Both the position numbers and the translations under genes were made by a program. Source: an uncultured Candidatus Saccharibacteria bacterium (GTDB lineage: Bacteria > Patescibacteriota > Minisyncoccia > Phycocordibacterales > WO2-35-19). From it: a DNA stretch of 42,143 bases. This document shows, piece by piece, positions 3,768-28,226 of the stretch; position 1 is the first letter of the stretch, and every line of letters begins with the position of its first letter. The notes under the pieces are model-generated. The model saw only the letters and a program-made list of their open reading frames with translations. It had not been told where the DNA came from and did no database searches. The DNA is taken from positions 1-42,143 of the forward strand of contig CAZFHL010000003.1 of the NCBI GenBank assembly GCA_964519145.1, in the 5' to 3' direction.

Positions 3768-3809
<42 letters not shown>

Positions 3810-4905: not shown

Positions 4906-4923
4906 CCACTTTTGGTAGAAAGT

Positions 4924-4999: not shown

Positions 5000-5040
5000 G
5001 TTTCTTCTAAAAGTTTGGTGAAGGTGTCGGTTTGGTATGT

Positions 5041-5116
5041 GGCCAGTTAGCTCAGATGGAAGAGCAGTGGCCCGATAAGCCACAGGTCGTAGGTTCGAGC
5101 CCTACACTGGCCACCA
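5041..5116 (+). tRNA. tRNA-Ile (anticodon GAU), CCA encoded, with C instead of U at position 33
   Basis: Hand-folded cloverleaf:
- acceptor ggccagt/actggcc
- D arm gctc-agatggaa-gagc
- anticodon stem gtggc/gccac with loop ccgataa
- T arm gtagg-ttcgagc-cctac. Confidence 0.8.
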
Positions 5117-5932: not shown

Positions 5933-6170
5933 TTTGAGAATTTCATTTAATGAAGTTTTCAAAAGGACTGGGACAGTTATAGAGATAAATAGTTAGACAA
6001 AATTTAAGAGTAAAGAGACAAAATAAAGTTAGTTACACAAAAAAGAAGCTACCTAAATTACAGTAATGTAGTTTTAGTCCAAACATGACAAACAAGCGCA
6101 CCAACGTCATGGTCCCGAATCCCGCTAAGCGGGAAGGGAAAAGATAGAGTCCAACTTGAAGGAATAGTTG
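5933..6170 (+). mobile_element. group I intron at 23S site equivalent to E. coli 1931 (ORF-less, 238 nt)
   Basis: The exon reads cctaaggT|...G|agcgaaattcc and rejoins to the universal CCUAAGGUAGCGAAAUUCC. The 5' exon ends in U and the intron ends in G. A J8/7-P7-like motif aagatagagtcc lies at 6141-6152. The P1 guide was not confidently located. Confidence 0.65.
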
Positions 6171-6292
6171 AGCGAAATTCCTTGTCTGGTAATTGAATTG
6201 CCAGTTTCGAGAGCGATCTCGATAAAAAATTCGGCTTATAACGGTGGAGCCCGACTCGAAAGAAGGGTAATACCGTGGGAAGTTGTTCAGTA

Positions 6293-6427
6293 CTAATTTT
6301 TGGAAAGAAGAAAACCCCTCAGGGTTCTCTGGGGGGGTTTAGGATCGCGATTTGCCCAATATGTAACAATCGCAGAGATTATTACAGCTAAAAAAGGTAG
6401 GATCAAAAAAAGCGATTCGTTGTTCAT
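6293..6427 (-). CDS. small hydrophobic peptide (44 aa) encoded antisense to the rRNA: MNNESLFLILPFLAVIISAIVTYWANRDPKPPQRTLRGFLLSKN
   Basis: ATG at 6427 is preceded by gagga plus 7 nt. The peptide has one predicted TM helix followed by a basic tail. It uses the same frame as track ORF 6293..6475, whose listed start is the TTG of the -35 box. An imperfect GC hairpin plus a T run overlaps the last codons. Confidence 0.5.
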   Translation of the reverse strand: MNNESLFLILPFLAVIISAIVTYWANRDPKPPQRTLRGFLLSKN

Positions 6428-6445
6428 GTAGGTATCCTCTGGAAG

Positions 6446-6475
6446 GATATAAACATAGCAGAGATTAATTGTCAA
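6446..6475 (-). promoter_or_regulatory. candidate promoter of peptide A
   Basis: Minus strand: TTGACA (6475-6470), 18-nt spacer, TATATC (6451-6446). The -10 element is only moderate. Confidence 0.4.
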
Positions 6476-6577
6476 TAATATTTTGACTCCAAAAATTAGT
6501 ACTGAATTAACCCCGTAACGACTTATGTACCACTAACTAGTGGCGCATAGATAGCTTAGGTAATACAATTATATTGT

Positions 6578-7063
6578 ATGAACAGCTATAACACGCCGAC
6601 TCTGCGAAGAGAGCTCGCAAACTACATCTCCGGATATGTTGATGGAGAAGGATGTTTCTCTGTTTCGGTATCGAAACGAGAGAAATTAAAAATCGGATGG
6701 GAAGTGAAGCCAAGTTTCTGTGTCGGTCAAAATTATGATCGGCGCGAAGTACTTGACCTCATGATTGTTTACTTCGGTTGCGGTCATATACGCCGCGATT
6801 GGGGAGACAGAACCCTGAAGTATGAAGTGAGAAAGATTAACGATCTCTTAGAGAAAGTCATTCCACACTTTGAAAAATTTCCTTTAAAGTCAGCAAAGCA
6901 AAAAGATTTCCTGCGGTTTGCAGAAATCTGCCGTCAGATGAAAGTTTTAGAGCACCACAAAGTGAGCGGTTTGAGAAAAATTCTCAAAAGCGCTTACAAG
7001 ATGAATGGATCAGGGAAGCGCAAGTTACCTTTATCCATGATTCTCAAAACAATTCGCAGATGA
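6578..7063 (+). CDS. LAGLIDADG homing endonuclease (single-motif, homodimer type)
   Basis: 161 aa with LANYISGYVDGEGCFSV (LAGLIDADG motif) near the N-terminus. It lies inside the group I intron, and its stop codon overlaps the intron core motif. Confidence 0.85.
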   Translation: MNSYNTPTLRRELANYISGYVDGEGCFSVSVSKREKLKIGWEVKPSFCVGQNYDRREVLDLMIVYFGCGHIRRDWGDRTLKYEVRKINDLLEKVIPHFEKFPLKSAKQKDFLRFAEICRQMKVLEHHKVSGLRKILKSAYKMNGSGKRKLPLSMILKTIRR

Positions 7064-7446
7064 AGATATAGTCTAATGCCTACAGTAATGTGGGGTAGGA
7101 GATTCTGCTCGCGCGGGCAGAATAGTCAAACTCAAATGAAGTTCAGACGCGCACGAATGGTGTAACGACTGGGGAACTGTCTCGGGGACTCGCTCGGTGA
7201 AAATACAGTACCGGTGAAGATGCCGGTTACCTGCAGTTAGACGAAAAGACCCCGGAAGCTTTACTGTAATTTGGCATTGAGGATATGTTTTTACTGCGTA
7301 GCATAGGTGGGAGGATTTGAAGTTTGCCTTTTGGGGCAGATGGATCCGTCAGTGAAATACCACTCTGTATTGACATATTTTCTAACCTGTTCGGCAAAAA
7401 CGGACAGAGACAGTGCCTGATGGGCAGTTTTAGTGGGGCGCTATCC

Positions 7447-7492
7447 TTCAGTATTTAAAATTTAAAAAGATTTAATTTTTTTGAATACTGAA
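7447..7492 (+). repeat. small cargo-less hairpin related to the cassette terminal repeats
   Basis: ttcagtatttaaaa.. pairs with ..ttttgaatactgaa. The arms resemble the outer repeats of cassette A (ttcagtact) and cassette B (attcaaa). It sits at the very 5' end of the L2262 intron. Confidence 0.5.
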
Positions 7493-7635
7493 TCCATGGC
7501 GCCTCCAGAGATTTGTCATCTCAAAACAAACAAATAAGGGGGACCATAGAGCGAAACCTCTATGAGAAAAGTTAGCTATATGCTGAGAAATCTCTTTGAG
7601 ATAATCAGCAGGGAAGTTAAATATTCAAATTTTTG

Positions 7636-7668
7636 GAAAAAGAAAATGCCAGCTCTTACGCGACTGGC
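7636..7668 (-). terminator. terminator-like hairpin after peptide B
   Basis: Minus strand: gccag-tcgcgtaagag-ctggc followed by attttcttttt. Confidence 0.45.
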
Positions 7669-7679
7669 TTACGGTCTTG

Positions 7680-7829
7680 TTAGATGAGTTGGAACTTTCG
7701 GAAAAAGCCAATGAGGCAAAGACCGAAAATCAAAGGAACGGTGATCACCACAAAAACCATCTGATCTTGGTGGTGTTGGGGATGGGTCAATGAATGCTGG
7801 TGACCCAACCCAACCAACGCTAACCACAT
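7680..7829 (-). CDS. small peptide (49 aa) encoded antisense to the rRNA: MWLALVGLGHQHSLTHPQHHQDQMVFVVITVPLIFGLCLIGFFRKFQLI
   Basis: AAGGAG, 6 nt, then ATG (7829); stop taa at 7682-7680. The peptide has a His/Gln-rich head, one hydrophobic helix and a basic tail. It is in a different frame from track ORF 7669..7878, which starts at the TTG of the -35 box. Confidence 0.55.
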   Translation of the reverse strand: MWLALVGLGHQHSLTHPQHHQDQMVFVVITVPLIFGLCLIGFFRKFQLI

Positions 7830-7849
7830 AAGGAACTCCTTTCGTGGTC

Positions 7850-7878
7850 ATTATGGCAAAACAATGACTTTTTGTCAA
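7850..7878 (-). promoter_or_regulatory. near-consensus promoter of peptide B
   Basis: Minus strand: TTGACA (7878-7873), exactly 17-nt spacer, CATAAT (7855-7850). Confidence 0.6.
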
Positions 7879-8355
7879 GCAAATCTTGACTCCAAAAATT
7901 TGAATATTTAATCCTTCAGAGACTAAACGCTAACCTTCTTGAAAAAGAAGATGATATAGTCCGAACTTTGTGGCGACACAAAGAGTAATAATTTATCCGT
8001 TAGTTATTGATTAACACAATGCCTAAAGAGTAACGGAGGAGCCTATTAAGGTCAGCTAGGCGTGAATGGAAACCATGCCGATAGTGTATAGGCACAAGCT
8101 GGCTTAACTGCAAGACGTAAGTGTCACGCAGATGCGAAAGCAGAGCTAAATGAACCGATCGTCCGCGTTAGACGCGGCGAAAGATTATCTGACAAAAGCT
8201 ACTCCGGGGATAACAGGCTGGTACTGCCTAAGCGTCCAGAGCGACGGCAGTGTTCGGCACCTCGATGTCGGCTCATCTTATCCCGGGGGTGGAGAAGCTC
8301 CCAAGGGTATGGCTGTTCGCCATTTAAAAAGATACGCGAGCTGGGTTCAGACCGT

Positions 8356-8452
8356 ACAGAAGTTATAAAGTTAAAAGTTTGTAAAGTTTTTAAAGTAAGG
8401 GAATTAATTTTTTACTTTATAAACTTTATAAACTTTATAAACTTTCAACTGT
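8356..8452 (+). repeat. AT-rich palindromic hairpin (ataaagt family) in the P1 loop of the L2593 intron
   Basis: acag (8356-8359) pairs with ctgt (8449-8452). The right arm contains tttataaac x3 in tandem. The core is taaagtttttaaagta-loop-tactttataaac. Confidence 0.7.
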
Positions 8453-8613: not shown

Positions 8614-8709
8614 ATGATTTATAAAGTAGAAAGTCCGTAAAGTTTTTAAAGTAAGTGCAAAATGTATTTACTTTATAAACATTATAACTTTAAAAACTTT
8701 ATGAATCAT
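8614..8709 (+). repeat. AT-rich palindromic hairpin (ataaagt family), P2 position of the L2593 intron
   Basis: atgatttataaagt pairs with actttatgaatcat. The core is gtaaagtttttaaagta-loop-tactttataaac. Confidence 0.7.
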
Positions 8710-9081
8710 TGGAATAAGTTGACTTATATCGGTGAAGTCCAATTTGGATAACACCGAGGGAACCGCGTCTGACGCGGACCCGTAGAGACTAAACGTCAAC
8801 AATTTGTTTTCTTTTGTAAGAGGTGAGGGGAGAATAAGCAATCAGTCAACCCAAACGACGAAGTATGTCGGACTGTATTTGCAGTTTCCATTTTGCAAAA
8901 AATGGATTCCATGCGTGCCACGGTACCCTCCCTCCTCTCTTACAGAGGAAAACAGATTAAGCTATAGTCCATTGCCACAAGTAATTGTGGGGTTCCGCCT
9001 TCGCTAAAAGCTATGGCGGACAAATCAAGCGTGAGACAGGTTGGTCTCCTATCTACTGCAGGCGTTGATTCTTGAGGGGAT

Positions 9082-9112: not shown

Positions 9113-9476
9113 TGACCTCTGGTGTGCCTGCTGTTCTGCCAAGAGCATCGCAGGGTAGCTAAGTCGGGAAAGGATAACCTCTGAAAGCATCTAAGAGGGA
9201 AGCCCACCCCAAGATTAGGAATCGTTAAGGATCGTGAGAGATGATCACGTTGATAGGCGCTAGGTGTAAGTATTGTAAAATATTAAGCCGAGGCGTACTA
9301 ATTTTCCGATTTCTTTCCACCAGAAACATTTTGTTTCTGTTTTTAGAAAATTTTACTCTGCTATATGGGACTTTCAAGTCTTATAATTGTTTTTTTAAAT
9401 AAAATATATAAATAGATTTATTTCAAAAATTCTCGCAAGAAAGACTTTTGAAAGAGATTTAATATTTGAATATTGT

Positions 9477-10115: not shown

Positions 10116-11519
10116 ATGAACGAATGGGCTAGCAGAAGAAAAAATATTTATTTATTTATTTTGGTAATATTCTTATCGGGTATTTCTTTTTACTTTTTTT
10201 ACAATTTTTGGTATCAAAAACCCAGCTGTTTTGATAATTTAAAAAATGGAGATGAGACGGGTATTGATTGTGGAGGGAAATGTCAATCTGTTTGTCAGGG
10301 AGAAACAATACAACCTATTATAAAATGGGATCCAAGGTTATTTAATGTAGATGCAAACATTTGGAGCCTTTTAGTTTATGTAGAAAATCCAAATATAAAT
10401 CATAAAATTTCTTATTTGCCATATAAAATCACAATTTATAATGATAAGAGTGATGTTATTTTTGAAAAAAGTGGCGCAACTATTTTGCCGAAAAATAAAA
10501 CGGTGGGTATTTTTGAAGGTAATATAGATTTAAAATTAAATAGACCACAAAGAGCTTTGTTTGAAATTGAGAAAGGTATTTTGTGGGAAGTCGATAAGAC
10601 TGATAATTATAATGATTTAAAAATAACACATACTCCTCTTATAAAATTAGATTCTTTTCCTAAAATAGAGGCCGAGGTAAAAAATGATGGACTAACTAAT
10701 TTAGAGAATATTGAATTAATCGTGGCTATTTTTGATGGTAAAGATAATGTAATAGCATCTTCTCGTACTTTTGTAGATAAATTAAATAAAAACACATCAA
10801 AGCAAATATTTTTTACTTGGAATAAGCCATTTGATTTAGGTATTAAAAGATGTGATAAAAATTCAGATATTGTTCTTCTTTTTGACAGGTCTGGTTCTAT
10901 GGCTTCGGTATCTATAAAACCTAAACAACCTTTGACTGATGCAAAAATTGCAACAATATCATTTTTAGAAAATTTATCAAAAGAAGATCAGGTTTCTGTT
11001 GTTTCTTTTGCAAATAATGCAACAGATCCTATTGATTTAACTCTGACAAGTGATTTTAAAGAAGTTGAAAATATTTTAACTCAAATAGATATATTTAATC
11101 AAGGTTTACAATATACAAATATATTTGAAGCTCTAAGATTTGGAAGACAGGAGCTTTTGTCTGCTAGAACAAAATCAGATTCAAATAAAATTATAATTTT
11201 ATTTACAGATGGGATAGCAAACGCTCCATTGGTTCAGAGCGGTAATACAGAAAAAGAAGACATAAATTATGCAGAAAATTTGGCATTAAATGAGTCTTTA
11301 AATATTAAAAAAGATAACATAGATATATATACTGTTGGTTTAGGTAAAAATATAAATGAATCCTTTCTTAAAAAAATAGCCTCTAGTGATAAAAAATATT
11401 TTTATGCACCTACTACTGATGATTTGTTTCAGATTTATAAAGATATCTCTTACCAAATTTGTAAAGAAGTACCGGCAAGAATAGAAATTACTCATAAAAT
11501 ATTTGGAAATTTAAATTAA
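10116..11519 (+). CDS. membrane-anchored von Willebrand factor A (vWA) domain protein
   Basis: N-terminal TM segment (IYLFILVIFLSGISFYFFY), a Cys-rich stretch, a MIDAS-type motif LLFDRSGSMAS, and a later ILFTDG. Confidence 0.7.
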   Translation: MNEWASRRKNIYLFILVIFLSGISFYFFYNFWYQKPSCFDNLKNGDETGIDCGGKCQSVCQGETIQPIIKWDPRLFNVDANIWSLLVYVENPNINHKISYLPYKITIYNDKSDVIFEKSGATILPKNKTVGIFEGNIDLKLNRPQRALFEIEKGILWEVDKTDNYNDLKITHTPLIKLDSFPKIEAEVKNDGLTNLENIELIVAIFDGKDNVIASSRTFVDKLNKNTSKQIFFTWNKPFDLGIKRCDKNSDIVLLFDRSGSMASVSIKPKQPLTDAKIATISFLENLSKEDQVSVVSFANNATDPIDLTLTSDFKEVENILTQIDIFNQGLQYTNIFEALRFGRQELLSARTKSDSNKIIILFTDGIANAPLVQSGNTEKEDINYAENLALNESLNIKKDNIDIYTVGLGKNINESFLKKIASSDKKYFYAPTTDDLFQIYKDISYQICKEVPARIEITHKIFGNLN

Positions 11520-15669: not shown

Positions 15670-16440
15670 ATGACTAATATATTATTTATGGAAAAATTGA
15701 TTAAACAATTGATGGAATTTGGAATCAGTGAAAAAGCTGCTCGCGCCTATTTATCTTTGGTAGAGATAGGCAAAGGAACAGCATACACTATTGCAAAACA
15801 ATCCGGAATAAAAAGGCCGACTGTTTATTTGTTAATAGAAGAATTAAGAAAAAAAGGGTTGGTCATAAAAATACCTCATATAAAAAATCAGGTCTACATA
15901 GCAAAGGATCCTACAGAATTCTTTCTTGATTTAGAAATTAAAATAGACGAAATTAAATCTACAATACCAAGATTATTTAATAAATCTAAAAAAGAAAATT
16001 CTATAGCACACTTATTTGATGGCAAAAATGAAGTTAAAGATGCGATTAAATATAAGATAAATGAACTTGCTGGGCAAGAGATGTTAGCCTTTTATGGAGT
16101 TCCTAGAAAAGGAAAAAATATACCAGAAATATATTATGATTATGCTAAAATTTTAGAAAATCAAAAAACAAGTGTTCGTTTCTTTGCTCCCAACGATGAT
16201 TCATTGAAAACATTTAGAAAAAAATATAGAAGCTATAATCATAAAGGAATATATTTATCTCCAGATGAATACCTCCCTAATGTATCTATTGAAGTTGGAT
16301 CAGATTTTTCAAAAATATTTTTACATACATCTACAAAAGTTTTGATAATTGAAGACAGAGATTTTTCTCATTTTATGAAGCAAATATTTGAATTATTGTG
16401 GAAGTTAAAAAATAAAAAACAGAATCTAAAATCAGGGTAG
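15670..16440 (+). CDS. TrmB-family transcriptional regulator
   Basis: N-terminus LMEFGISEKAARAYLSLVEIGKGTAYTIAKQSGIKRPTVYLLIEELRKKGLV is a typical TrmB wHTH. Confidence 0.7.
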   Translation: MTNILFMEKLIKQLMEFGISEKAARAYLSLVEIGKGTAYTIAKQSGIKRPTVYLLIEELRKKGLVIKIPHIKNQVYIAKDPTEFFLDLEIKIDEIKSTIPRLFNKSKKENSIAHLFDGKNEVKDAIKYKINELAGQEMLAFYGVPRKGKNIPEIYYDYAKILENQKTSVRFFAPNDDSLKTFRKKYRSYNHKGIYLSPDEYLPNVSIEVGSDFSKIFLHTSTKVLIIEDRDFSHFMKQIFELLWKLKNKKQNLKSG

Positions 16441-19145: not shown

Positions 19146-20048
19146 ATGAATATTGTTAAATACAGAAAAATATTTTATATAATCTCTTTTGTTTTGATCG
19201 GTGTTTCTTTTTATTCTATTTTTACTTTTGGTTTAAAAACAGGTACTGATTTTTCTGGAGGAAGTTTGCTTGAAATTGGATTTAAAGAAGATGCTCCTTC
19301 AAAAGAGATCGTTAATCAAGTTATTATAAACTCTGGTATTTCGAATACTGTTATTCAGCAGATAAAAGAAGGTGGTTTTAGTATAAAATTGAGAGAAATC
19401 AGTCAAGAAGAAAAAAATAATATTTTAATTGGAATACAAAGTTTAGGATTTATTCCTATTGAAAAATCTTTTACGAATGTTGGACCAGTTTTAGGAAAAG
19501 AGGCTTTGAATAAATCTATAGTTTCGATTATTTTAGTTTTGACGGCTATTGTTTGTTTTGTGGCTTTTGCTTTTAGAAAAGTCTCAAAACCAATATCGTC
19601 TTGGGTTTATGGTTTTGTGGCTATAATAGCACTTCTACATGACGTCATTATACCAACGGGTATATTTGCTATATTTGGCAATCTTTATGGATTTGAAATA
19701 GACACACTTTTTATTACTGCTATTTTAGTTATTTTAGGTTTCTCTGTTCATGATACTATTGTTGTGTTTGATAGAGTCAGAGAAAACTTGAATAATTCTA
19801 CATCTCCAAAGACAGCAGAAGAGTTCGATAAAATTGTAGATGAAAGTGTGAGAGAAACATTTATAAGATCACTAAACACTTCTTTAACCACTTTGCTCGC
19901 AATAGCGGTACTCTATATATGGGGCCCAGATTCTATAAAACATTTTTCACTAACTTTGCTTATCGGCATTACAGTCGGTACATACTCCTCAATATTTATA
20001 GGTTCTCCGCTCCTTACAACCATAAATCGTTTTAAGTTTAAAAAATAA
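19146..20048 (+). CDS. secF: protein translocase subunit SecF
   Basis: GTDFSGGSLLEI, LHDVIIPTGIFAIFG and LGFSVHDTIVVFDRVREN. It lies immediately downstream of secD. Confidence 0.85.
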   Translation: MNIVKYRKIFYIISFVLIGVSFYSIFTFGLKTGTDFSGGSLLEIGFKEDAPSKEIVNQVIINSGISNTVIQQIKEGGFSIKLREISQEEKNNILIGIQSLGFIPIEKSFTNVGPVLGKEALNKSIVSIILVLTAIVCFVAFAFRKVSKPISSWVYGFVAIIALLHDVIIPTGIFAIFGNLYGFEIDTLFITAILVILGFSVHDTIVVFDRVRENLNNSTSPKTAEEFDKIVDESVRETFIRSLNTSLTTLLAIAVLYIWGPDSIKHFSLTLLIGITVGTYSSIFIGSPLLTTINRFKFKK

Positions 20049-20066
20049 AGCAAACGATAGACCTAA

Positions 20067-20193
20067 TTTCAAAAGTCGTCGCAAGTGTAGTTTTTGATAG
20101 ACTTGCGCAAGGTTGACTCTACCGACCATAGCAAAAAATCAGCAGATTTTTATGTGTGTCTATCAAAAACTATACTAAGAAAGATTTTTGAAA
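20067..20193 (+). repeat. 127-nt two-stem palindromic element, copy 1 (type E1)
   Basis: Outer stem tttcaaaagtc/gatttttgaaa, 10+10-nt internal loop, inner stem tagtttttgatagac/gtctatcaaaaacta, and a 55-nt apical region. The reverse complement recurs at 26810-26936 with about 6 differences. Confidence 0.85.
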
Positions 20194-20258
20194 TATCGTA
20201 CGGTTACAAGTTTGACTTTTTTGTGAAATTATATATAGTCTTTTAAGGGAGTTCATTT

Positions 20259-20981
20259 ATGCTAGAAAGAACAGGAAGAGCTTTTGAAAGACTTTTCATT
20301 GGGAGTAGCACTGATTTAGATTATCTTTTCGAGCAAAAGTATGATATTCCAGAATTAAAATCAGGAACAGATTTTGCACGCGATGTTCCTAAATTTATCA
20401 AAGCGTCTAAAAAACTGGGAATCAGATGTCCAAATACGCCTATTGCTAAAAGGATGTTTTATGGTCTAAAAAATAGACTAACTAAAATTTTAAAGAGAGA
20501 AGTTGATCTTTGGTTTTTACCGACCGGAAATGTAGAAGAGGGTACTTTTTTAGACGCTTTCCATTATACAGATGTTGTAATTCATATTTCTGGGATAAAT
20601 ACTATTTTAACTCTTGATTTGTATTATGTAGAAAATGAAATAATTGATTTTTTAAAGGAAAAGTGGATCAAGAGTTTTAATAGAAAAACTTGGTACACAG
20701 AAGCAAATTTTCAAGACGATTTGTTTAGATATAAAAAAGGATTGAAAGTTGTAAAAAAGCTAATAAAAGCAAAATTAGGTGGAAGAGAAGCTTCTTTGTT
20801 TCCAATTGAAAAATCTGATTTAGAAATCAGGGATCTCAGTGTTTTTAGACCGAGTAATCATTTTATTGTGACTCCAGATCATATTTCAGTCAGGCGCAAA
20901 AGATTAAATTTTCTCAATTTTCTGGCAAGGTATTATGTTGATTTGGTAAAGATAGAAGAAGGAGGTCTTCCTTATGGTTGA
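20259..20981 (+). CDS. hypothetical protein (240 aa)
   Basis: ORF with RBS aagggag and an upstream TTGACT..TATAGT. No recognisable motif. Confidence 0.6.
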   Translation: MLERTGRAFERLFIGSSTDLDYLFEQKYDIPELKSGTDFARDVPKFIKASKKLGIRCPNTPIAKRMFYGLKNRLTKILKREVDLWFLPTGNVEEGTFLDAFHYTDVVIHISGINTILTLDLYYVENEIIDFLKEKWIKSFNRKTWYTEANFQDDLFRYKKGLKVVKKLIKAKLGGREASLFPIEKSDLEIRDLSVFRPSNHFIVTPDHISVRRKRLNFLNFLARYYVDLVKIEEGGLPYG

Positions 20982-21017
20982 GCCCAGTTTTTGCTTCGCA
21001 AAAACTGGGCTCTTTTT
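20980..21017 (+). terminator. strong intrinsic terminator
   Basis: 15-bp stem gagcccagtttttgc / gcaaaaactgggctc with a 3-nt loop, then ttttt. Confidence 0.85.
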
Positions 21018-21122
21018 ATACATGAATTCCCAAATATCCAATTCAAATTTACCTTTAAATATATACATATTTTCTTAAATTATTTATAAAATTTAATATT
21101 TTATAAAATAGTACAATAATAC

Positions 21123-21150
21123 TTGACAAAAATATACAAATGTGTATAAT
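21123..21150 (+). promoter_or_regulatory. consensus sigma70-like promoter of the second G+C-rich gene
   Basis: TTGACA (21123-21128), 16-nt spacer, TATAAT (21145-21150). Confidence 0.6.
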
Positions 21151-21238
21151 ATATATCAGATTTGATTAGTTCTTGATGGGGTTGAAAAACCACATTAGGA
21201 ACAGATTGAAAAGATTAGAATAGAAAGAAGGATAAAAA

Positions 21239-22630
21239 ATGAACATCGACATGAGTGCGGCGTTGGCCAAGGCCAACACAATCGTTGCCCGGCCGAAGCC
21301 GGTGGAAGATCTCTCGGTCGTCTTGCTACGCAAGGCGAATGGGCTCTTGCATACATCAAACGTTAACGCAGAGTTCGGCCAAATCATGGCCGCTCTGCCG
21401 GCGTTGAATCAGGAGCAAGTGGCTCCGGTCATGTCTGCGCTCTTTACCGCCGTCAAGGAGAGGGACGGACTCAATAAGTTCTCGGTCGTCTCCCAGCTGA
21501 TGGAATATCAGTCTGGGGGGGCGGATGAATATGCGCTTAAGGCCTTCATGGATTGGGACGGCCAAACGGTCGGGGTCTTTGACCCCGAAACAGGGAACTA
21601 CGCCGAGGGGAAGAATGGCGTAGCGACGCCGTGTATGGCGGTTCGCTACTTGGCTGGACGGAACGAAGGTTTTCTTCCCGTTCTCGCCAAGTTGAAGGAA
21701 GACTTCGGCGCCGCGTTCGACAATGATGGTTATCAGGTGTGGCCGACCACACTCATCGCTGGCCTCTACGGCCCGAAGTATTGTGCGCCGGTTTTCAACC
21801 CGGCCCACAATGACCGGCATGATGGCGGGACGCTGATCCCGAAGACGAATTACCTCGCGGTCAGAATCCCCGAGGAGATTCGAAATAATGTCCGGATGCA
21901 GTCGGCCGGAGAGATTCTCCGGAACGGTGGAAAGCAAAATGATCCGGATCATCCACTTGCGCACACTGGCAGGATTCAGCCGGACCTGAATTACCTGGTC
22001 TGCGCCGGGATGACGAATGAGCAATTTATGAGGTTGCTCAATCTGATGCTCGGGTACGCACGATGCGGGGTATACGCCCTTGATATGAGGGGCATCATTG
22101 GTCGGCTGGTTCACCACAAGGCCTTTACGGCCGGAGTGGGGATCGCCGGGCAAATATTGAAGTTCCTCAATGGGACCGTAGGCGAGTATGGAAAGCCTGG
22201 CCCTGGAATCGAAATCCTCAAGCTCCTTTCGACTTGGGCGCTAGCGTCGAATAAGTCCATGGGTGATGAGAACAAGGAGCTCTTCGATGTCGCTTTCGCT
22301 CGGTTTAAGGACAACCTTGGGATTAAGAAGGTTGTCCAGGATCATGAGCCTCTTCTCCCAGAGGAGCCCCTGCCGGTGGCCAACAAGAAGGCCAACAAGA
22401 AGGCCGATGGGAAGAAGGGCGAGAGCAATGATCATCGTCAGAAGCCTCGGGCTCCGAAGCCCGAGGTGAATGACCGGCGTCTCCGTCGTCAGGAAGACGA
22501 CGAGGAAGACGAGGGCGGTGTCGGTGCTTCTTCGGGAGAGGGTGTTGCACCATCCCTGCCTCGGCAGGTGGTGGTGAATAACGCCATGGCCACGCAGTTG
22601 GCCGCTCTCGGGCTCGCTCCGAAAAAGTAA
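21239..22630 (+). CDS. G+C-rich orphan protein (463 aa) with a charged low-complexity C-terminal tail, function unknown
   Basis: RBS gaaggataaaaaATG. 35 of the first 60 nt are G/C, against 11 of 60 in the promoter region just upstream (my count). The tail is ..KKANKKADGKKGESNDHRQKPRAPKPEVNDRRLRRQEDDEEDEGG... No motif recognised. Confidence 0.7.
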   Translation: MNIDMSAALAKANTIVARPKPVEDLSVVLLRKANGLLHTSNVNAEFGQIMAALPALNQEQVAPVMSALFTAVKERDGLNKFSVVSQLMEYQSGGADEYALKAFMDWDGQTVGVFDPETGNYAEGKNGVATPCMAVRYLAGRNEGFLPVLAKLKEDFGAAFDNDGYQVWPTTLIAGLYGPKYCAPVFNPAHNDRHDGGTLIPKTNYLAVRIPEEIRNNVRMQSAGEILRNGGKQNDPDHPLAHTGRIQPDLNYLVCAGMTNEQFMRLLNLMLGYARCGVYALDMRGIIGRLVHHKAFTAGVGIAGQILKFLNGTVGEYGKPGPGIEILKLLSTWALASNKSMGDENKELFDVAFARFKDNLGIKKVVQDHEPLLPEEPLPVANKKANKKADGKKGESNDHRQKPRAPKPEVNDRRLRRQEDDEEDEGGVGASSGEGVAPSLPRQVVVNNAMATQLAALGLAPKK

Positions 22631-22747
22631 CTTCGGCGGTGCTGGTGTTTCTTGAGGACATCCCTCAACGATTCGCTGGGACCCGAAATTGTTGGTGTAT
22701 AGTCTTGATCAAATGGTTGATTAAGGCTAAGTAGTTTGTTTGGTAAC

Positions 22748-22785
22748 ACGCCGGCTCTGAAAAGAGCCGGCGTTTTCATTTTTTA
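22748..22785 (+). terminator. intrinsic terminator of the G+C-rich gene
   Basis: acgccggctct-gaaa-agagccggcgt followed by tttcatttttt. Confidence 0.85.
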
Positions 22786-22830
22786 TAAAAACATTAAAAT
22801 TTAATATTTGAATGTTATAAAAATAAAACA

Positions 22831-22962
22831 TTTTACATAAACTATTGAGTGGTACTAGTATTTCTGTGCCTTGCGAGTCTCGACGGAGCGAGCACGAGGA
22901 ATTTTTCACCAGAAAAATATCCGTGCACAGAAATACTAGTACCCGAGAGAGATTATGTAAAA
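22831..22962. repeat. 132-nt two-stem palindromic element (type E3), same architecture as E1
   Basis: Outer stem ttttacataa/ttatgtaaaa, 10+9-nt internal loop, inner stem ggtactagtatttctgtgc/gcacagaaatactagtacc (19 bp), and a 55-nt apical region. Confidence 0.8.
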
Positions 22963-23024
22963 AATTTAATAATATAAATGATATGCACAGTTTTTCTTTT
23001 TGTGTCTTGTGGTAAAATGTTTTT

Positions 23025-23291
23025 ATGCAATCTCATTTTTTAATTTCTTTTGGTTTATGGATCATAATAATTCCATTTTTAGGAATATCTAGTGTTTCCA
23101 AAAATTATTTAAATATCATTTCCGGATTATTTTTATTGTTTTTTGTTTTATCCCCAATTGTTTTTAATAAAATAGAAGTAAAACAAAAAGTGAAAAAGAG
23201 GAAAGGCAAAAATACTGAAAGTAATTTAGTTAATATAAAAAATTATTCTGAAGTAGAGGATTTGCCTTTAGAAAAGGATATAGAAATGTAA
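23025..23291 (+). CDS. small membrane protein (2 TM segments), hypothetical
   Basis: 88 aa with two hydrophobic segments then a Lys-rich tail. The stop lies 1 nt before the next ATG (coupled). Confidence 0.5.
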   Translation: MQSHFLISFGLWIIIIPFLGISSVSKNYLNIISGLFLLFFVLSPIVFNKIEVKQKVKKRKGKNTESNLVNIKNYSEVEDLPLEKDIEM

Positions 23292-23292
23292 T

Positions 23293-24513
23293 ATGATTTT
23301 TACTCAAAAAAATGTAATAAAATATTTTATTTTCTTTTTAATATTTATATTTTTAATTTCTTTTTTATTTTCTTCTAAGATAAGTTTAAAAAATAAAGAA
23401 AGTGTAGAAAATAAAATTATAAAAAAGGAAATCACTTATCTTAAAACTCCTGAAAATTTAAAAGCAGTTTATATGTCAGCTTGTTTTGCTAGCAATAAAA
23501 GTTTAAGAGAAAATCTTGTAAAATTGGTAGATGAAACTGAAATTAATTCTATTATGATTGATGTCAAAGATTACACAGGTACGGTATCATTTTTAACTGG
23601 GGATAAAGAGATAGATGGATTAAATGGCTCTGGTTGCAAAATAAATGATTTAGAAGATTTTATAAAATACCTTAAAGATAAAAATATATATACAATAGCA
23701 AGGATAACCGTTTTTCAAGACCCGACTTTCACAAAACATTACCCGAGTTTAGCAGTAAAGAGGAAAAGTGATGGAGGTGTTTGGGTAGATAGGAAAGGTA
23801 TATCTTTTGTTGATGTTGGAGCAAAACCTTTTTGGGATTATATAGTTTCTATATCTAAATATTCTCACGATATTGGTTTTGATGAAATAAATTTTGATTA
23901 TATTCGTTTTCCTTCGGATGGAAATATGAAAGATATTGATTTCCCTCATACAGGCACAACTACAAAAAAAGAAATGCTTAAAAAGTTTTTTGAGTATTTG
24001 GATAATGAAATGGCTAAAAAAGAAATAGTATCTTCAGCAGATGTTTTTGGTATGACTACTACAAATACAGATGATCTAAATATTGGTCAAGTTTTGGAAT
24101 ACGCTTTATTAAATTTTGATTTTGTTGCTCCCATGGTTTATCCGTCACATTATCCAAATGGTTTTAATGGTTGGCAAAATCCAAATGAAGTGCCCTATAA
24201 AATAATCAAATTTAGTATGGATAGCGCTGTTGCAAGAAATCTTGCTTTAAAAAAAGAAGTTTTATCAAAAATGTATATTGAAAATGCTTCTTCTTCAACA
24301 AAAGAGAAAACAAATTTTTATAATGAAAGGGTTGAAAAAAGATTATCAAAAAAACAAATTCGTCCTTGGCTTCAAGATTTTGATTATCCTGTGCCATACA
24401 CTAGAAGTATGGTAAAGGAGCAAATAAAAGCAGTTTATGATGCTGGTCTTTCAAGTTGGATGCTTTGGGATCCTAGTAATAAATACACAAAAGAGGCTTT
24501 GGTTTTAGAATAA
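23293..24513 (+). CDS. putative glycoside hydrolase-like TIM-barrel protein (DUF4015-like), N-terminally anchored
   Basis: Signal-anchor sequence. IMIDVKDYTG, FDEINFDYIRFPSDG and FVAPMVYPSHY blocks resemble the 'putative glycosyl hydrolase domain' family. Family recalled from memory only. Confidence 0.45.
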   Translation: MIFTQKNVIKYFIFFLIFIFLISFLFSSKISLKNKESVENKIIKKEITYLKTPENLKAVYMSACFASNKSLRENLVKLVDETEINSIMIDVKDYTGTVSFLTGDKEIDGLNGSGCKINDLEDFIKYLKDKNIYTIARITVFQDPTFTKHYPSLAVKRKSDGGVWVDRKGISFVDVGAKPFWDYIVSISKYSHDIGFDEINFDYIRFPSDGNMKDIDFPHTGTTTKKEMLKKFFEYLDNEMAKKEIVSSADVFGMTTTNTDDLNIGQVLEYALLNFDFVAPMVYPSHYPNGFNGWQNPNEVPYKIIKFSMDSAVARNLALKKEVLSKMYIENASSSTKEKTNFYNERVEKRLSKKQIRPWLQDFDYPVPYTRSMVKEQIKAVYDAGLSSWMLWDPSNKYTKEALVLE

Positions 24514-24543
24514 ATTTCAATTTATTTGATATAATTTATACAA

Positions 24544-26724
24544 ATGGATGATAAAAATAAAAATGATATAACATATTTTGCAGAAACAGATGCAAGAAAC
24601 AAAAAAATTAAATTTGGTATAAGGGCTGAAGATCGTCTTCGTCATTTTTATTCTATTGGAAAAACAGGTATGGGTAAATCTACTTTGCTTGAAAATATGG
24701 CTATTCAAGATATTCAAAATGGTGAAGGGATGGCTTTTCTTGACCCCCATGGCAAGACAGCTGATTTACTTCTTGATTATATCCCAGAACACAGAATAAA
24801 AGATTTAATATATTTTGCTCCTTTTGATATAGAAAATCCAATCTCTTTTAATGTGATGGAAGATGTGGGGGCAGATAGGAGGCATTTGGTTGTTTCTGGT
24901 CTTATGAGTGCTTTTGAAAAAATATGGGTAGACGCTTGGAGCGCTAGAATGGCATACATTTTGCAAAACACTTTAGCGGCTTTGCTTGAATACCCTGGAG
25001 CTACGATGCTTGGAATAAATAGAATGTTGTCTGACAAAATTTATCGTCAAAAAGTGGTAGATAATGTAAAAGATTCAACCACAAGATCCTTTTGGGTAGA
25101 TGAATTTGCAAAATATACAGAAAGATTTGCAGCTGAAGCAACTCCCGCTATTCAAAATAAAGTAGGGCAGTTTACCTCAAATCCACTTATTAGAAATATC
25201 ATAGGTCAAGCTAGATCTTCTTTTGATATAAGAAAAATAATGGATGAAAAAAAGATTTTAATAGTAAACCTTTCTAAAGGTTTGGTGGGGGAGAATAATG
25301 CAAATCTTTTGGGTTCAATGATTGTAACTAAAATATATTTGGCCGCCATGAGTAGAGCAGACGCTTCTCCCGCTGAATTAAAAAGATTACCAAATTTTTA
25401 TTTATATGTAGACGAGTTTCAATCTTTTGCTAACAAAAGTTTTGCCGATATTTTATCAGAAGCTCGTAAATATAAACTGTCTCTAAATATTACTCACCAA
25501 TATATTGAACAAATGGCAGAAGAGGTGAGAGCGGCCGTTTTTGGAAACGTTGGTACTATGGTTACTTTTAGGGTAGGTTCTTATGATGCTGAACTTTTAG
25601 AAAAAGAATTTGCGCCAGTTTTTACAATGGAAGATATTGTGAACCTTGGTTTTGCTCAGATATATTTACGATTAATGATAAATGGTGTTGCTTCACAACC
25701 TTTTTCAGCAACCACACTTGCTCCTATTTCAAAACCAGAAAAAGTTTTTAGAGAGGAGGCTCTTAAATATTCAAGACAAACATATTCTCATAATAAAACA
25801 GAAGTAGAGCAATCTATAAAAGATTGGTATTTGCCTGATACAAAAAATATAGATACCACAAAAGGTGATGCAAACAATAAATCTGCAAAAGAGGTTCCAA
25901 AAAGGGATTTTAAAGATGCTCCAAGGGGTTTAAACCCTGATGCCTATAAACATGTAGTGGATTCGTTTAAAGGTAAAGATATAGTTAAAAATGATGCAAA
26001 AGTAGAAGATAAACCAATTTCTGAAAGTATTGATAAAATTGAAAATCCTGTGGTTAAAAAAGAGCCAACTATTAGAGATCAAATAAATATAAATATTGAT
26101 AAACAAAAAGTTTTTACTAATCCTCAAAATGTTCCAAATAAACCACCAATATCTCTATCTGTTTTAAATGAAGATAAAAATAAAAACAAAAATGCTAAGC
26201 CAGAAAGTGTAAATGCGCTAAGAGATGCTCTTTTAAAAATACAGAGTAAAGATGGGGCTGTTAGTCCTGAAAATAAAAAAGAGACTACTTCAAATAATGT
26301 GGCCATACAAGACTTAAAAGATAAAATAAGTCAAAGCAAGATAGAGACGCCAAAAATAGAATATAAACCAGTTGAGCCTGTACAAATTAAAGAAATAGAT
26401 ATTCAAAATAAAAATTCTTTTGAAGATAAAAAAAGCCCTGAGAAATCAGAAAGTCCTAAAATAGATTTACCAAAAATAGAGGTTCTAAAAAAACCAGATA
26501 TAGTTAGTACTCCTCTTGATAAGGAGAAAAATAAAGTTGTACAACAAGAGCCTGTTCAAATTATTAGACCAAGTATTCCTGTAGAAAAAATATCTATAGA
26601 TACTCAAACTAAAGTTCCAGAAAATCCACCAAAGAAAGATGAAAGTTTTAATTCAAACACTTTTATTAAAACAAAGGAGATACCAGAAGATTTGTTGAGA
26701 AAAGTTTTAAACGGAGAAAATTAA
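24544..26724 (+). CDS. TraD/VirD4-like (type IV coupling protein-like) P-loop ATPase with a long Lys/Pro/Glu-rich C-terminal tail
   Basis: Walker A IGKTGMGKSTLL, Walker B-like FYLYVDEFQSFA, and LNITHQYIEQM. No N-terminal TM segment. The last ~300 aa are low complexity. Confidence 0.65.
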   Translation: MDDKNKNDITYFAETDARNKKIKFGIRAEDRLRHFYSIGKTGMGKSTLLENMAIQDIQNGEGMAFLDPHGKTADLLLDYIPEHRIKDLIYFAPFDIENPISFNVMEDVGADRRHLVVSGLMSAFEKIWVDAWSARMAYILQNTLAALLEYPGATMLGINRMLSDKIYRQKVVDNVKDSTTRSFWVDEFAKYTERFAAEATPAIQNKVGQFTSNPLIRNIIGQARSSFDIRKIMDEKKILIVNLSKGLVGENNANLLGSMIVTKIYLAAMSRADASPAELKRLPNFYLYVDEFQSFANKSFADILSEARKYKLSLNITHQYIEQMAEEVRAAVFGNVGTMVTFRVGSYDAELLEKEFAPVFTMEDIVNLGFAQIYLRLMINGVASQPFSATTLAPISKPEKVFREEALKYSRQTYSHNKTEVEQSIKDWYLPDTKNIDTTKGDANNKSAKEVPKRDFKDAPRGLNPDAYKHVVDSFKGKDIVKNDAKVEDKPISESIDKIENPVVKKEPTIRDQININIDKQKVFTNPQNVPNKPPISLSVLNEDKNKNKNAKPESVNALRDALLKIQSKDGAVSPENKKETTSNNVAIQDLKDKISQSKIETPKIEYKPVEPVQIKEIDIQNKNSFEDKKSPEKSESPKIDLPKIEVLKKPDIVSTPLDKEKNKVVQQEPVQIIRPSIPVEKISIDTQTKVPENPPKKDESFNSNTFIKTKEIPEDLLRKVLNGEN

Positions 26725-26770
26725 TACGTTGGATTTTTTTTAAATGAATAATTTACTTGCATAGCCTGCT

Positions 26771-26995
26771 GAGAGGTACTAGTATTCCTGTGCACTGATA
26801 TTAAATCTCTTTCAAAAGTCTTTCTTAGTATAGTTTTTGATAGACACACATAAAAATCTGCTGATTTTTTGCTATGCTCGGTTCAGTCAACCTTGCGCAA
26901 GTCTATCAAAAACTACACTTGCGACGACTTTTGAAAGAGGCCATCTTTTTGCTAAAAAATTCCTGCGAAGCTGTTTCAGTCAAACTCGCTAGGCT
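26771..26995. repeat. degenerate E3-type element split by insertion of E1 copy 2
   Basis: ggtactagtattcctgtgcac (26775-26795) matches the E3 arm ggtactagtatttctgtgcac. After the E1 insert, taaaaaattcctgcgaagc...caaactcgctagg (26951-26992) aligns with the reverse complement of the E3 apical region (gaaaaattcctcgtgctcgc...gagactcgcaagg). Confidence 0.55.
26810..26936 (-). repeat. 127-nt two-stem palindromic element, copy 2 (type E1, inverted relative to copy 1)
   Basis: Reverse complement of 20067-20193 apart from about 6 substitutions, clustered in gctcggttcag versus ggtcggtagag. Its own outer stem tttcaaaagtc/gacttttgaaa is perfect. Confidence 0.85.
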
Positions 26996-27071
26996 TCAAA
27001 AAGGTATGATTTCAACGAGTTTTGTAATTCACATACTTCTCTTATTTGTCTTTTTTTGATAATATCTTTTT

Positions 27072-28226
27072 ATGAATAACAAAAAGAAAGTTCTTATCTT
27101 TGCAACATCTTACTATCCTTTTATGGCAGGGGCGGAAGTAGCAATAAAAGAAATCACAGACAGAATTAATGACATAGATTTTTATATGATAACAGGGAGA
27201 TTTGATAAAAATTTATCTTCTGTAGAAAATTTTGGAAATATAAAAATATATAGAGTTGGTTTTGGTATAAAAATGTTAGACAAATTACTTTTGCCTTTTT
27301 TGGGAGCTTTGTATGCTATTTATTTAAATTATAAATATCACTTTTCTTGTTATTTATGTGTCATGGTGTCTTTTGCAAGTGGGGCTGCATATATTGCTAA
27401 TATCTTAAATTTTTGGTCAAAAGTCCCTATAATTTTAAACATACAAGAAGGGGATAGTGAAGAATATCTGAAAAGCAAATGGTGTGGACTCCTTAATTTT
27501 TCTTGGAACCTCTCAATAAAAAGATCTAAAAAAATAATAGTTTTAAGTGAATACTTAAAGAATAAAGTTTTGTCCTTTAAACACAATATACCAATTCTGA
27601 TAATTCCAAACGGAGTGGATATTTTAAATTTTGATATAGAGATAAATCAATCTGAAAGAAATAAAATCAGAGAAGAATTTGGAGTTAATGAAAATGATCT
27701 ATTAATGATAACAGTTTCAAGATTGAACATAAAAAATGGTTTAGAGTATGTTATAAAAGCTTTAAGTAAATTAGATAAAAGGATTAAATTTTTGATTTGT
27801 GGTTCTGGAGAATTAGAAAATGGTTTAAAAAATTTAGCAAAAGAACTTGGGGTTTTAGACAGAGTGATTTTTAAAGGTTTTGTGTCACATAAAGAAATTC
27901 CAAAATATTTAAAATCCTCAGATATTTTTATAAGACCATCTCTCTCTGAAGGTTTTGGCAATTCTTTTATTGAAGCTTTTGTGGCTAAAATTCCAGTGAT
28001 AGCAACTCCTGTTGGAGGTATAGTAGATTTTTTATTTGATGGTTCTGATATTTCAAAAAACACTGGTTATTTTTGTAAACCAAAAGATTATCAAAGTATA
28101 GTTTACACAGTAAATAGAGTCATTGAAGATAAATATGTAAATAAAAGAATAAATAATGCTTATGATTTGGCTAAAAATAAATATAATTTTGATTCAATAG
28201 CAAAAGAGTTTAGGGATAGTTTATAA
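27072..28226 (+). CDS. glycosyltransferase family 4
   Basis: YYPFMAGAEVAIKEI near the N-terminus and the C-terminal block RPSLSEGFGNSFIEAFVAKIPVIATPVGGIVDF. Confidence 0.75.
   Translation: MNNKKKVLIFATSYYPFMAGAEVAIKEITDRINDIDFYMITGRFDKNLSSVENFGNIKIYRVGFGIKMLDKLLLPFLGALYAIYLNYKYHFSCYLCVMVSFASGAAYIANILNFWSKVPIILNIQEGDSEEYLKSKWCGLLNFSWNLSIKRSKKIIVLSEYLKNKVLSFKHNIPILIIPNGVDILNFDIEINQSERNKIREEFGVNENDLLMITVSRLNIKNGLEYVIKALSKLDKRIKFLICGSGELENGLKNLAKELGVLDRVIFKGFVSHKEIPKYLKSSDIFIRPSLSEGFGNSFIEAFVAKIPVIATPVGGIVDFLFDGSDISKNTGYFCKPKDYQSIVYTVNRVIEDKYVNKRINNAYDLAKNKYNFDSIAKEFRDSL

Follow-up and report, generated by a model that had tools for sequence, protein, structure and literature searches.

The DNA analyzed in this study, referred to as the window, is the whole stretch of 42,143 nucleotides (nt) at positions 1 to 42,143 of contig CAZFHL010000003.1 (assembly GCA_964519145.1) from an uncultured Candidatus Saccharibacteria bacterium. 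It is a chromosome fragment from the Candidate Phyla Radiation (CPR; Patescibacteria) with a 23S rRNA gene containing introns, a 5S rRNA gene, secDF, FtsW/RodA, and a large glycosyltransferase/epimerase cluster. The genomes closest to it are metagenome-assembled genomes (MAGs) labelled Saccharibacteria and Vogelbacteria. We investigated a G+C-rich gene of the window, island 2, which encodes a protein of 463 amino acids (aa) and occupies a slot surrounded by housekeeping and envelope genes (polysaccharide, cell-wall biogenesis, and secretion). All features from o240 to the small membrane protein gene given here lie on the plus strand. The usual gene 5' of the slot belongs to the o240 family (240 aa; 20259..20981), and its intrinsic terminator (20980..21012), a 15-pair hairpin with a T run, forms the 5' edge of the slot. 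An AT-rich spacer (21013..21122), which is particular to the window's sublineage and varies in length, separates this terminator from a sigma-70-type promoter, TTGACA-16-TATAAT (21123..21150). The promoter matches the consensus at 12 of 12 positions and is the sole perfect match within 19900-27100. It is followed by an AT-rich leader of 88 nt (21151-21238) with a predicted stem-loop near its 5' end (21161..21210). An A-rich stretch (21211..21238), unpaired in the minimum free energy (MFE) and centroid structures, contains the ribosome-binding site (RBS) GAAGGA (21227-21232), 6 nt before the ATG at 21239. The coding sequence (CDS) consists of a variable body (codons 1-399; 21239..22436), for which no homolog was detected, and a conserved C-terminal tail (codons 400-463 and the stop; 22437..22630). 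A structured 3' untranslated region (UTR) of 117 nt (22631..22747) leads to an intrinsic terminator (22748..22785) with 11 pairs (8 G-C) at 22748-22773, a 4-nt loop, and a T run. The conserved 3' boundary of the slot is a gene for a small protein of 88 aa with two transmembrane (TM) segments (23025..23291), and the alignment to relatives picks up again at ~22985, at the promoter/RBS of this gene. A 726-aa TraD-like P-loop ATPase (24544-26724) is encoded two genes 3' of the slot gene.

The open reading frame (ORF) at 21239-22630 has a G+C content of 0.57, with 0.63, 0.40, and 0.68 at the first, second, and third codon positions (GC1, GC2, and GC3), compared to a GC3 of 0.15-0.20 in native genes and a genome G+C of 31%. 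An earlier note, made by reading this DNA without database searches, had described a consensus promoter, an 88-nt AT-rich leader, and an RBS, and all of them were found at these coordinates. It had also reported a jump in composition at the ATG, which was seen as a step at the start codon from 0.26 (21200) to 0.64 (21250) in 50-nt windows. Its statement that the high G+C persists through the 3' UTR was right for the first half, where the value is ~0.5, and wrong for the part before the terminator, where it falls to ~0.35; its strong terminator at 22748-22785 was confirmed. The predicted elements support the view that island 2 is an autonomous unit with very strong expression signals.

We next consider whether the ORF is a gene and what it encodes. 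When the island was simulated 5000 times with a first-order Markov model, the open frame averaged 164 codons and never exceeded 436, so that 463 codons were reached in none of the runs, and G+C by codon position followed the coding-type pattern of GC1>GC2<GC3. Because of its ORF length, together with the third-position bias, in-frame indels, and preserved stop seen in the alleles described below, island 2 is a genuine protein-coding gene. The body of the protein is predicted to be mostly helical, and no signal peptide or TM segment was seen by eye. Its tail consists of a basic block RQKPRAPKPEVNDRRLRR, an acidic block, a Gly/Ser linker, and a terminal helix AMATQLAALGL. The single-sequence AlphaFold2 model was unusable, with a predicted local distance difference test (pLDDT) score of 40.6, and at most hints at a mostly helical body and a disordered tail. 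The earlier characterization as an orphan whose charged tail is disordered and whose end is short and hydrophobic was borne out, the end being a short helix. No nameable motif had been claimed, and none was found in Pfam, NCBIfam, PHROGs, PADLOC, or PDB sequences. Only the protein itself was returned by a word-indexed search of 5.8e9 clusters and by an exhaustive phmmer search of 1.84e9 representatives, and no homolog was found among about 15 billion proteins. Searches of GTDB genomes and IMG/VR, tblastn searches of phage and plasmid sets, and a search of JGI metagenome contigs with the tail as query returned no relative, and a contig look-up with the exact protein gave no entry. By these searches the protein is an orphan. 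The nucleic-acid- or surface-associated role suggested in the earlier note is speculative. Two candidates were considered and dropped. An encapsulin or microcompartment cargo peptide was rejected since genes for a shell are lacking; an endogenous maturation gene of a single-stranded RNA (ssRNA) phage was rejected since there is no Pfam match and the lineage-wide slot speaks against it.

The locus was then compared with metagenomic contigs. Logan contigs from three runs of the source freshwater sample matched the window with 100% identity at 21011-22075 (X3), 22441-22901 (X1), and 22553-22897 (X2), and the read depth was even across the island, at a low source-sample coverage of 3-5x. The earlier note had named two findings that would speak against its account, an assembly error at the island's ends and an ORF conserved nowhere and broken by frameshifts. 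Neither was the case: contigs crossed both junctions, and diverged in-frame alleles were found in four other metagenomes, two from aquaculture (X4 and X6), one from drinking water (X5), and one from groundwater (X8). In X4, a single contig of 2704 nt at 16x depth carried o240 and the leader up to 21232 with ~98% identity to the window. Between flanks of ~97-98% identity, 1190 nt replaced the 1204-nt body of the window and could not be aligned at >=85%. The match resumed from 22437 and covered the stop, the UTR, and the terminator with ~92% identity, and the contig ran on into the start of the repeat element E3 described below. The divergence in X4 was ~1.2% in o240 and ~8% in the tail, with the body unalignable at 85%.

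The tail was kept in X4, X6, and X8. In X4 it had 16 substitutions, 11 of them at third positions, with 0 indels and 6 amino-acid changes in 64 residues, unlike the 3' UTR, which had six indels in the 150 nt compared; the UTR was ~90% identical in X4 and X8, with indels. The X6 tail had a net 3-nt deletion that is in frame, and the X8 tail had an in-frame GGT insertion and a change of TAA to TAG that keeps the stop. The loose ends of the X5 and X6 contigs past the alignable part were homologous yet far more diverged (DNLGIKKVVQ versus ANLGIKENAV). As these ends are recognizably homologous, the body is present in relatives as a fast-diverging homolog. The promoter was kept in X4 and X8, and in X8, 81 nt of the spacer (21012-21092) were swapped for 12 nt. 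Within the window's sublineage, the gene body diverges more than 10 times faster than its flanks, while the last 64 codons are under purifying selection; since it is the tail that relatives conserve, this part of the protein is functionally important. The sharp divergence peak on the CDS body in X4 indicates diversifying selection, recombination of alleles via the conserved leader and tail, or both.

To place the slot in related genomes, loci were fetched with secF and DUF4015 as anchors, which gave three genomic and 64 metagenomic loci; gene order was read as far as each contig extends. The order secD, secF, o240-family gene, slot gene, small two-TM gene, DUF4015, TraD-like ATPase, and GT4 genes was found in the genomic locus L001 and in 10 metagenomic loci, and L022 (1418-3576) has the same order without o240. 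The synteny comparison with related CPR genomes that the earlier note had proposed thus showed that gene order and slot are both conserved. The slot is filled by a second type of protein, family A, in 12 distinct loci, L001 and 11 metagenomic ones (hmmsearch matches in L001, L011-L013, L016, L017, and L019-L026, of which L023 duplicates L016 and L026 duplicates L025). Family A members share 19-46% pairwise identity and a KPVPATAPAR.L motif and have no known domain; their alignment is too divergent to yield patterns for searching viral contigs. A third type of occupant was found in L027 (3878-4648), an unrelated G+C-rich ORF of 256 aa behind TTGACA-17-TATAAT. The site is empty in L014 (4827-5996), where secF is directly followed by the small TM gene and DUF4015; o240 is absent as well, so that o240 and the slot gene form a two-gene indel relative to this empty site. 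The 463-aa protein showed no homology to family A (BLASTP E = 1.2; hhalign probability 0.1%), and no trace of it was found in any fetched locus.

Homologs of o240 (24-31% identity) lie directly 5' of the slot gene in L001, L011-L013, L016, L017, L020, L021, L025, and L027. No match to o240 was found in Pfam, NCBIfam, PADLOC, or PDB, the word-indexed search returned only o240 itself, and the o240 and family A profiles gave only chance-level matches against PDB and Pfam. Homologs of the small TM gene lie 5' of DUF4015 in 21 loci, including the empty-site locus L014. Promoters of the type TTGACT/TTGACA-17-TATACT/TATAAT were present 5' of every slot gene examined. In relatives, the 3' arm of the upstream terminator abuts the -35 element of the slot promoter with no spacer, whereas the window has a 110-nt spacer. 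A GAGCCCA...TGGGCTC-type hairpin followed by TTGACT was found in L001, L012, L017, L020, and L021; L016 and L026 have hairpins equivalent to it. The regulatory frame of the relatives further includes a leader of ~100 nt in most loci, an RBS, and, after the stop, a small hairpin and then a strong terminator, which is present 3' of every slot gene. The small 3' UTR hairpin motif TTGGGCCA(C/T)GCGCCC is common to L027 and some family A loci (L016, L021, and L026). A linear motif 'KP...R.L[RK]' common to the window tail and family A was too weak to claim, and a decayed ancestral promoter at ~21085-21120 was dropped because the alignment of AT-rich DNA is untrustworthy. As a separate observation, the o240 homolog of L016 (3830-4339) looks truncated, its ORF being only 72 aa long when counted from the first Met, and it is overlapped by the open frame of the family A gene, which reaches upstream to 4315; o240 may be decaying here, or the sequence may contain an error.

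Compositional islands are routinely taken as horizontal transfer, and the earlier note had called island 2 horizontally acquired cargo. In this study, we found that family A genes have a G+C content of 0.50-0.59 compared to 0.33-0.40 for their own loci, and that all slot occupants lie 15-25 points above their own genome. The codon usage of island 2 correlated with that of family A (r = 0.82) and negatively with that of native genes (r = -0.50), and its third-position base use was near-identical to that of family A. Since the slot gene is always G+C-rich in relatives, high G+C is a long-standing property of the slot; it is an old and maintained feature and not the mark of a recent arrival. By the criteria used for genomic islands, the deviating composition is present, while the slot is occupied by a G+C-rich gene in 12 relatives and is empty only in L014. 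As a mobility hallmark, an integrase was looked for by family scans of the ORFs in the segment, and none was found. The databases searched above likewise held no donor homolog of the 463-aa protein. Transfer as previously claimed is therefore not supported, since 12 related loci hold a G+C-rich gene in the same regulatory frame.

The folding of the slot-gene transcripts was then examined with z-scores of the folding energy against dinucleotide-preserving shuffles. In island 2, z was -5.4 for the leader (21151-21238; MFE -19.2 kcal/mol), -4.7, -3.4, and -5.3 for the three thirds of the CDS, and -4.6 for the 3' UTR, which had no Rfam match. Native genes gave +0.1 and +2.4, and AT-rich native genes gave z ~0. 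Eight family A genes (18 segments) ranged from -1.7 to -6.3, whereas composition-matched controls, ordinary DUF4015 genes of G+C-rich CPR genomes (11 segments), ranged from -1.2 to +3.0. The synonymous permutation test fixes the protein, codon usage, and GC3. Under this test island 2 had z-scores of -2.9 to -4.3 and family A of -2.0 to -6.2, while the controls scattered around 0; in 12 of 13 segments, none of 30 permutations was as stable as the native sequence. Slot-gene transcripts as a group were far more stable than both kinds of randomized sequence, with z about -3 to -6. A second folding tool gave z = -4.58 for 21239-21538 (0 of 200 shuffles as stable); two segments of this genome's 23S rRNA gave -0.43 and -3.31, and the island value is at least as negative. 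The same tool gave -19.8 kcal/mol and z = -3.35 for the leader and start (21151-21260), with the RBS unpaired in both of its predicted structures. Pairs span a median of 28 nt, so the fold is mostly local and not rod-like. The leader hairpin was kept, with a remodelled apex, in the reconstructed X4 leader. Of random substitution sets matched to the X4 tail in spectrum and codon positions, 96% were more destabilizing to the fold than the real ones. The sense strand exceeded the antisense strand in 15 of 18 segments (Wilcoxon p = 0.012) and had more G-U pairs. Weaker excess structure was seen in the island 1 family and an ORF of L002, both described below, and in the L027 ORF.

Taken together, these observations are best explained, with a confidence somewhat above even, by a hypervariable protein gene in a conserved slot whose G+C would be the footprint of a selected, highly structured mRNA. 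The high G+C would then be the compositional trace of selection for a heavily base-paired transcript, as with rRNA and tRNA genes in an AT-rich genome. The strong promoter, the 5' hairpin, the open RBS, the folded body, and the terminator would together give a long-lived and highly productive mRNA, and its product would be an abundant, mostly helical protein that is not secreted via Sec. The variable body may be engaged in evolutionary conflict, or in a partner-specific interaction, the other party being a phage, a host cell, or the envelope, while the conserved charged tail and C-terminal helix may dock the protein to a conserved partner. Alleles would probably be swapped by homologous recombination, with the conserved leader and the tail/UTR as handles.

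Several points weigh against this explanation. High expression and stability of the transcript are predictions from the sequence. The z-scores rest on predicted MFE, and the controls were about a dozen genes and not a whole genome. The second folding tool gave z = -1.99 only for 22000-22299. The antisense strand was also strongly structured (z = -4.32; mean antisense z = -3.28), which would fit a cause at the DNA level. The three occupant types resemble one another at their C-termini only in an impressionistic way, and the tails are not demonstrably homologous. Finally, the whole unit of the window, from promoter to terminator, could not be aligned with family A units, which equally fits an import from outside; since neither the CDS nor the whole transcription unit is alignable, a replacement happened at some time, whatever its source.

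If the explanation by a selected, structured mRNA holds, it could reach beyond this gene. We tentatively suggest that CPR/Patescibacteria might possess 'armoured' coding transcripts, non-homologous and diversifying slot genes kept G+C-rich by selection for pairing of the whole mRNA. It is conceivable, though rather doubtful, that selection acts on such an mRNA, down to its synonymous sites, to make it as base-paired as rRNA. The pairing might be explained by an extreme longevity of the mRNA in cells that have very few ribosomes, by protection from AU-targeting nucleases, or by an RNA that is exported or has a second function. If so, G+C-rich single-gene islands (diversity-generating retroelement targets less so) would mark conflict or interface genes with special RNA biology and not foreign DNA. 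The 25-point G+C excess is a stable, lineage-wide trait of one slot that goes with synonymous-site structure. This offers a testable alternative to horizontal transfer, one that could also account for other outlier genes of high G+C in reduced, AT-rich genomes. At least three protein types, none recognizably like another, occupy the slot; they change far more quickly than the sequence around them and sit behind a promoter that is close to perfect. These proteins are good candidates for abundant, strain-specific mediators of CPR-host or CPR-phage interaction. Native and recoded alleles would also make a tractable system for the effect of CDS structure on mRNA lifetime and protein output in bacteria. 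In the literature searched, we found neither single-gene islands of high G+C nor structured coding transcripts described for CPR, nor any chromosomal slot with non-homologous occupants that have in common a large G+C excess linked to structure throughout the CDS.

A first rival, in line with the earlier note, is recent horizontal acquisition. The resident slot gene would have been replaced by one from a donor of ~55-60% G+C, which may or may not have brought a promoter and terminator along, and whose composition has not yet drifted to that of the host. The G+C and codon usage of island 2 are indeed far from native, and the amino-acid composition is rich in Ala, Gly, and Pro, as in a G+C-rich organism. 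The failure to align the whole transcription unit with family A units, and the unrelatedness of the proteins, would also be expected, and the data set holds G+C-rich CPR relatives (L044-L071, G+C 0.50-0.58). However, no homolog was found in any of the protein, genome, JGI contig, IMG/VR, phage, or plasmid records searched. The ancestral occupant was equally G+C-rich with nearly the same third-position base use, so composition cannot tell a newcomer from a resident. The promoter and leader are AT-rich and native-like, and the body of the gene has had time within the sublineage to diverge by more than 15-20%. Recent acquisition also leaves the excess structure at synonymous sites unexplained, and we consider it unlikely.

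A secreted effector was weighed as a second rival. Here the tail would be a translocation signal for the TraD/VirD4-like ATPase or another non-Sec exporter, and the variable body would act on a host cell or competitor. The X-Tfe effectors of Xanthomonas reportedly combine variable N-terminal domains with a conserved C-terminal VirD4-binding domain (XVIPCD), and substrates of VirB/D4 and Dot/Icm have charged C-terminal signals. As in these type IV secretion system (T4SS) effectors, island 2 within its sublineage encodes a variable body and a conserved, charged, disordered C-terminus ending in a short helix, with a gene like that of a coupling ATPase nearby. The lack of an N-terminal signal peptide by eye, the synteny of the TraD-like P-loop ATPase in relatives, and the fast evolution that suits a conflict protein are all in keeping with an effector. 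However, the TraD-like gene adjoins DUF4015 even at the empty site of L014, so its linkage to the slot is not specific. The ATPase matched TraD/TrwB/CedD models far below their cut-offs and had no N-terminal TM segment by eye. Unlike that of known effectors, the tail matches no known signal domain, and there are no T4SS channel genes within 42 kb. The neighborhood is one of envelope polysaccharide and cell-wall biogenesis, and the lack of demonstrable homology among the tails of the three occupant types also speaks against an effector. The G+C richness and RNA structure would remain unexplained. An effector role thus seems improbable to us. Separately, it was observed that the TraD-like protein is syntenic with DUF4015 in nearly all 64 loci, and that its C-terminal half, of ~350 residues, is of low complexity.

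A third possibility is that the excess pairing arises at the level of DNA or mutation and not by selection on the mRNA. In one version, intra-strand hairpins would limit transcription-associated mutagenesis in a very highly transcribed gene; DNA hairpin selection against such mutagenesis is the subject of Hoede et al. (2006; PMC1630709). In a second version, template-switch (quasi-palindrome) hairpins or G+C-biased gene conversion at a recombination hot spot would raise both divergence and G+C. The structure of the antisense strand fits either version, the sharply bounded hyper-divergence suggests frequent recombination, and the G+C enrichment and the structure both extend over the whole unit. 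Against this, the sense excess was the larger one in 15 of the 18 segments and came with more G-U pairs, which are absent from DNA. The 5' hairpin, open RBS, and terminator also follow the logic of RNA. We know of no G+C-biased conversion of this size (GC3 from 0.17 to 0.68) in bacteria. An origin at the DNA level is therefore given a low probability.

Further behind is the proposal that a structured non-coding or dual-function RNA is the main product and the long ORF incidental. The z-scores equal to or beyond those of rRNA along the whole transcript and the unit's own promoter and terminator would suit it, and RNA genes are the usual content of G+C-rich islands in AT-rich genomes. However, the 463-codon ORF was absent from the simulations and shows coding periodicity, the four alleles have third-position bias, in-frame indels, and a kept stop, family A has invariant residues and motifs, and the RBS is good and correctly spaced. 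A gathering-threshold scan of Rfam gave no match, and a permissive E-value scan of the island gave matches at chance level only. This proposal is very improbable, and in its purely non-coding form it is effectively refuted. An assembly chimera of foreign G+C-rich DNA and an AT-rich contig, which the abrupt change of composition at both ends and the 3-5x coverage might have suggested, has practically no chance of being right, being already refuted by the identical, evenly covered junction-crossing contigs of three runs, by the G+C-rich tail or UTR close to the window's in X4, X6, and X8 from other studies, by the X4 and X8 contigs that pass from the same leader into unlike sequence, and by the identical architecture of 12 independent contigs.

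With the structured, hypervariable slot gene as the preferred explanation, island 2 was compared with known systems. Like a phage moron, it is a single ORF with its own sigma-70 promoter and terminator between genes that are adjacent in L014, its composition is far from that of its neighbors, and the occupant varies between related genomes. Unlike a moron, it lies outside a prophage, and the slot and its regulatory frame are vertically conserved. The 463-aa protein has no PHROG match, and no phage or viral-contig relatives were found for it, for o240, or for a family A member of L001. The slot occupants also share a deviant composition and excess RNA structure, which to our knowledge morons do not. 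Loci of the S-layer type have a strong promoter, a long 5' UTR hairpin, a stabilized mRNA, a variable exposed domain, and a conserved anchor domain. Island 2 resembles them in silico in its very strong promoter, 5' leader hairpin, and strong terminator, and also in the extreme divergence between close relatives, the one conserved terminus, and the neighborhood of envelope and secretion genes. It differs in that the slot protein lacks a signal peptide (by eye) and an S-layer homology (SLH) or other anchor domain, contains several cysteines, and measures 32-50 kDa only, and in that structure runs through the entire CDS and is tied to a G+C shift of ~25 points. Genomes of ssRNA phages and Obelisk-like RNAs are coding RNAs under genome-wide structural selection; these share with island 2 a strongly negative z along the whole coding RNA and orphan proteins. 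Island 2 differs from them in being chromosomal, with a bacterial promoter and terminator, a local fold, and no replicase.

Variable proteins of diversity-generating retroelements (DGRs) are also G+C-rich outliers in the same CPR genomes and diversify rapidly, and the DGR family described here has a moderate excess of RNA structure. In island 2, no pair of template repeat (TR) and variable repeat (VR) was found, a self-BLAST against the window giving no second copy. A six-frame scan of the window gave no Y[AVILMC]DD motif of reverse transcriptase (RT), and no scanned ORF matched an RT family. The divergence spans the ~1.2-kb body and not an adenine-templated 3' block of ~130 nt. Island 2 is not a DGR target. 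The DGR family in question is that of island 1 (1116-1700), which encodes a 194-aa protein belonging to a family of 166 unnamed proteins, several of them from Patescibacteria MAGs. This family was G+C-rich in every genome examined (0.57-0.61 versus 0.39-0.40). In L008 and L004, the 3' end of the island 1 homolog is a VR, and the corresponding TR adjoins bAvd and RT; the repeat pair lies at 10449-10578 / 11048-11177 in L008 and at 10455-10581 / 10991-11117 in L004. Mismatches between VR and TR fell on TR adenines in 16 of 17 cases in L008 and 22 of 23 in L004. The island 1 family consists of DGR variable (target) proteins and is separate from island 2. No TR or RT was found within 42 kb of the window's own copy, which is thus an orphan or remote DGR target. 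Its alignment-based AlphaFold2 model was confident, with a pLDDT of 87.8, and Foldseek matches were weak and C-type-lectin-like.

The window also contains two repeats that the earlier note had placed around and after the slot gene, and both are real. E1 is 127 nt long and occurs in two inverted copies (20067-20193 and 26810-26936), 6.6 kb apart and 97% complementary, each a hairpin; a weaker E1-related copy was observed at 9418-9465. The depth of E1 in X4 was 1137 compared to ~16 in the flanks, so E1 is a high-copy repeat resembling miniature inverted-repeat transposable elements (MITEs). E3 is a palindromic hairpin (~22845-22945) between the island terminator and the promoter of the small TM gene, with a partial copy at 26757-26802. 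It is also MITE-like and multi-copy in several metagenomes, with a depth of 337 in X4 and 34 in X5, and assemblies break inside it. None of the 74 fetched loci contains E1, not even the relatives that have this gene order, and E3 was not found in family A loci; both are confined to the window's sublineage. Since relatives keep the gene order without E1 or E3, the E1 repeats delimit no mobile element. The inverted E1 pair could in principle invert the 6.6-kb segment, with the window in the ancestral orientation.

In L002, a more distant relative, a further G+C-rich orphan ORF was observed (15717-16424; 235 aa; 0.52 versus 0.39). It lies just 3' of a tRNA-like sequence (by eye) and behind TTGACA-17-TATATT, is followed by a terminator, and has RNA structure moderately in excess (z = -2.4 and -1.8), which points to G+C-rich units of promoter, ORF, and terminator recurring at other sites in these genomes. 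In the window itself, the 23S rRNA match (3161-8417) spans 5.26 kb compared to the 2.9-kb model. The tRNA genes Leu-TAA, Met-CAT, and Ile-GAT and the ORFs 5343-5822 (minus strand) and 6578-7063 (plus strand) lie inside this span. There are two group I introns, the second past the end of the large subunit rRNA match, and features of this region were noted at 4818-5116, 7512-7983, and 8647-8991. The 23S region looks like a fragmented or heavily interrupted rRNA operon.

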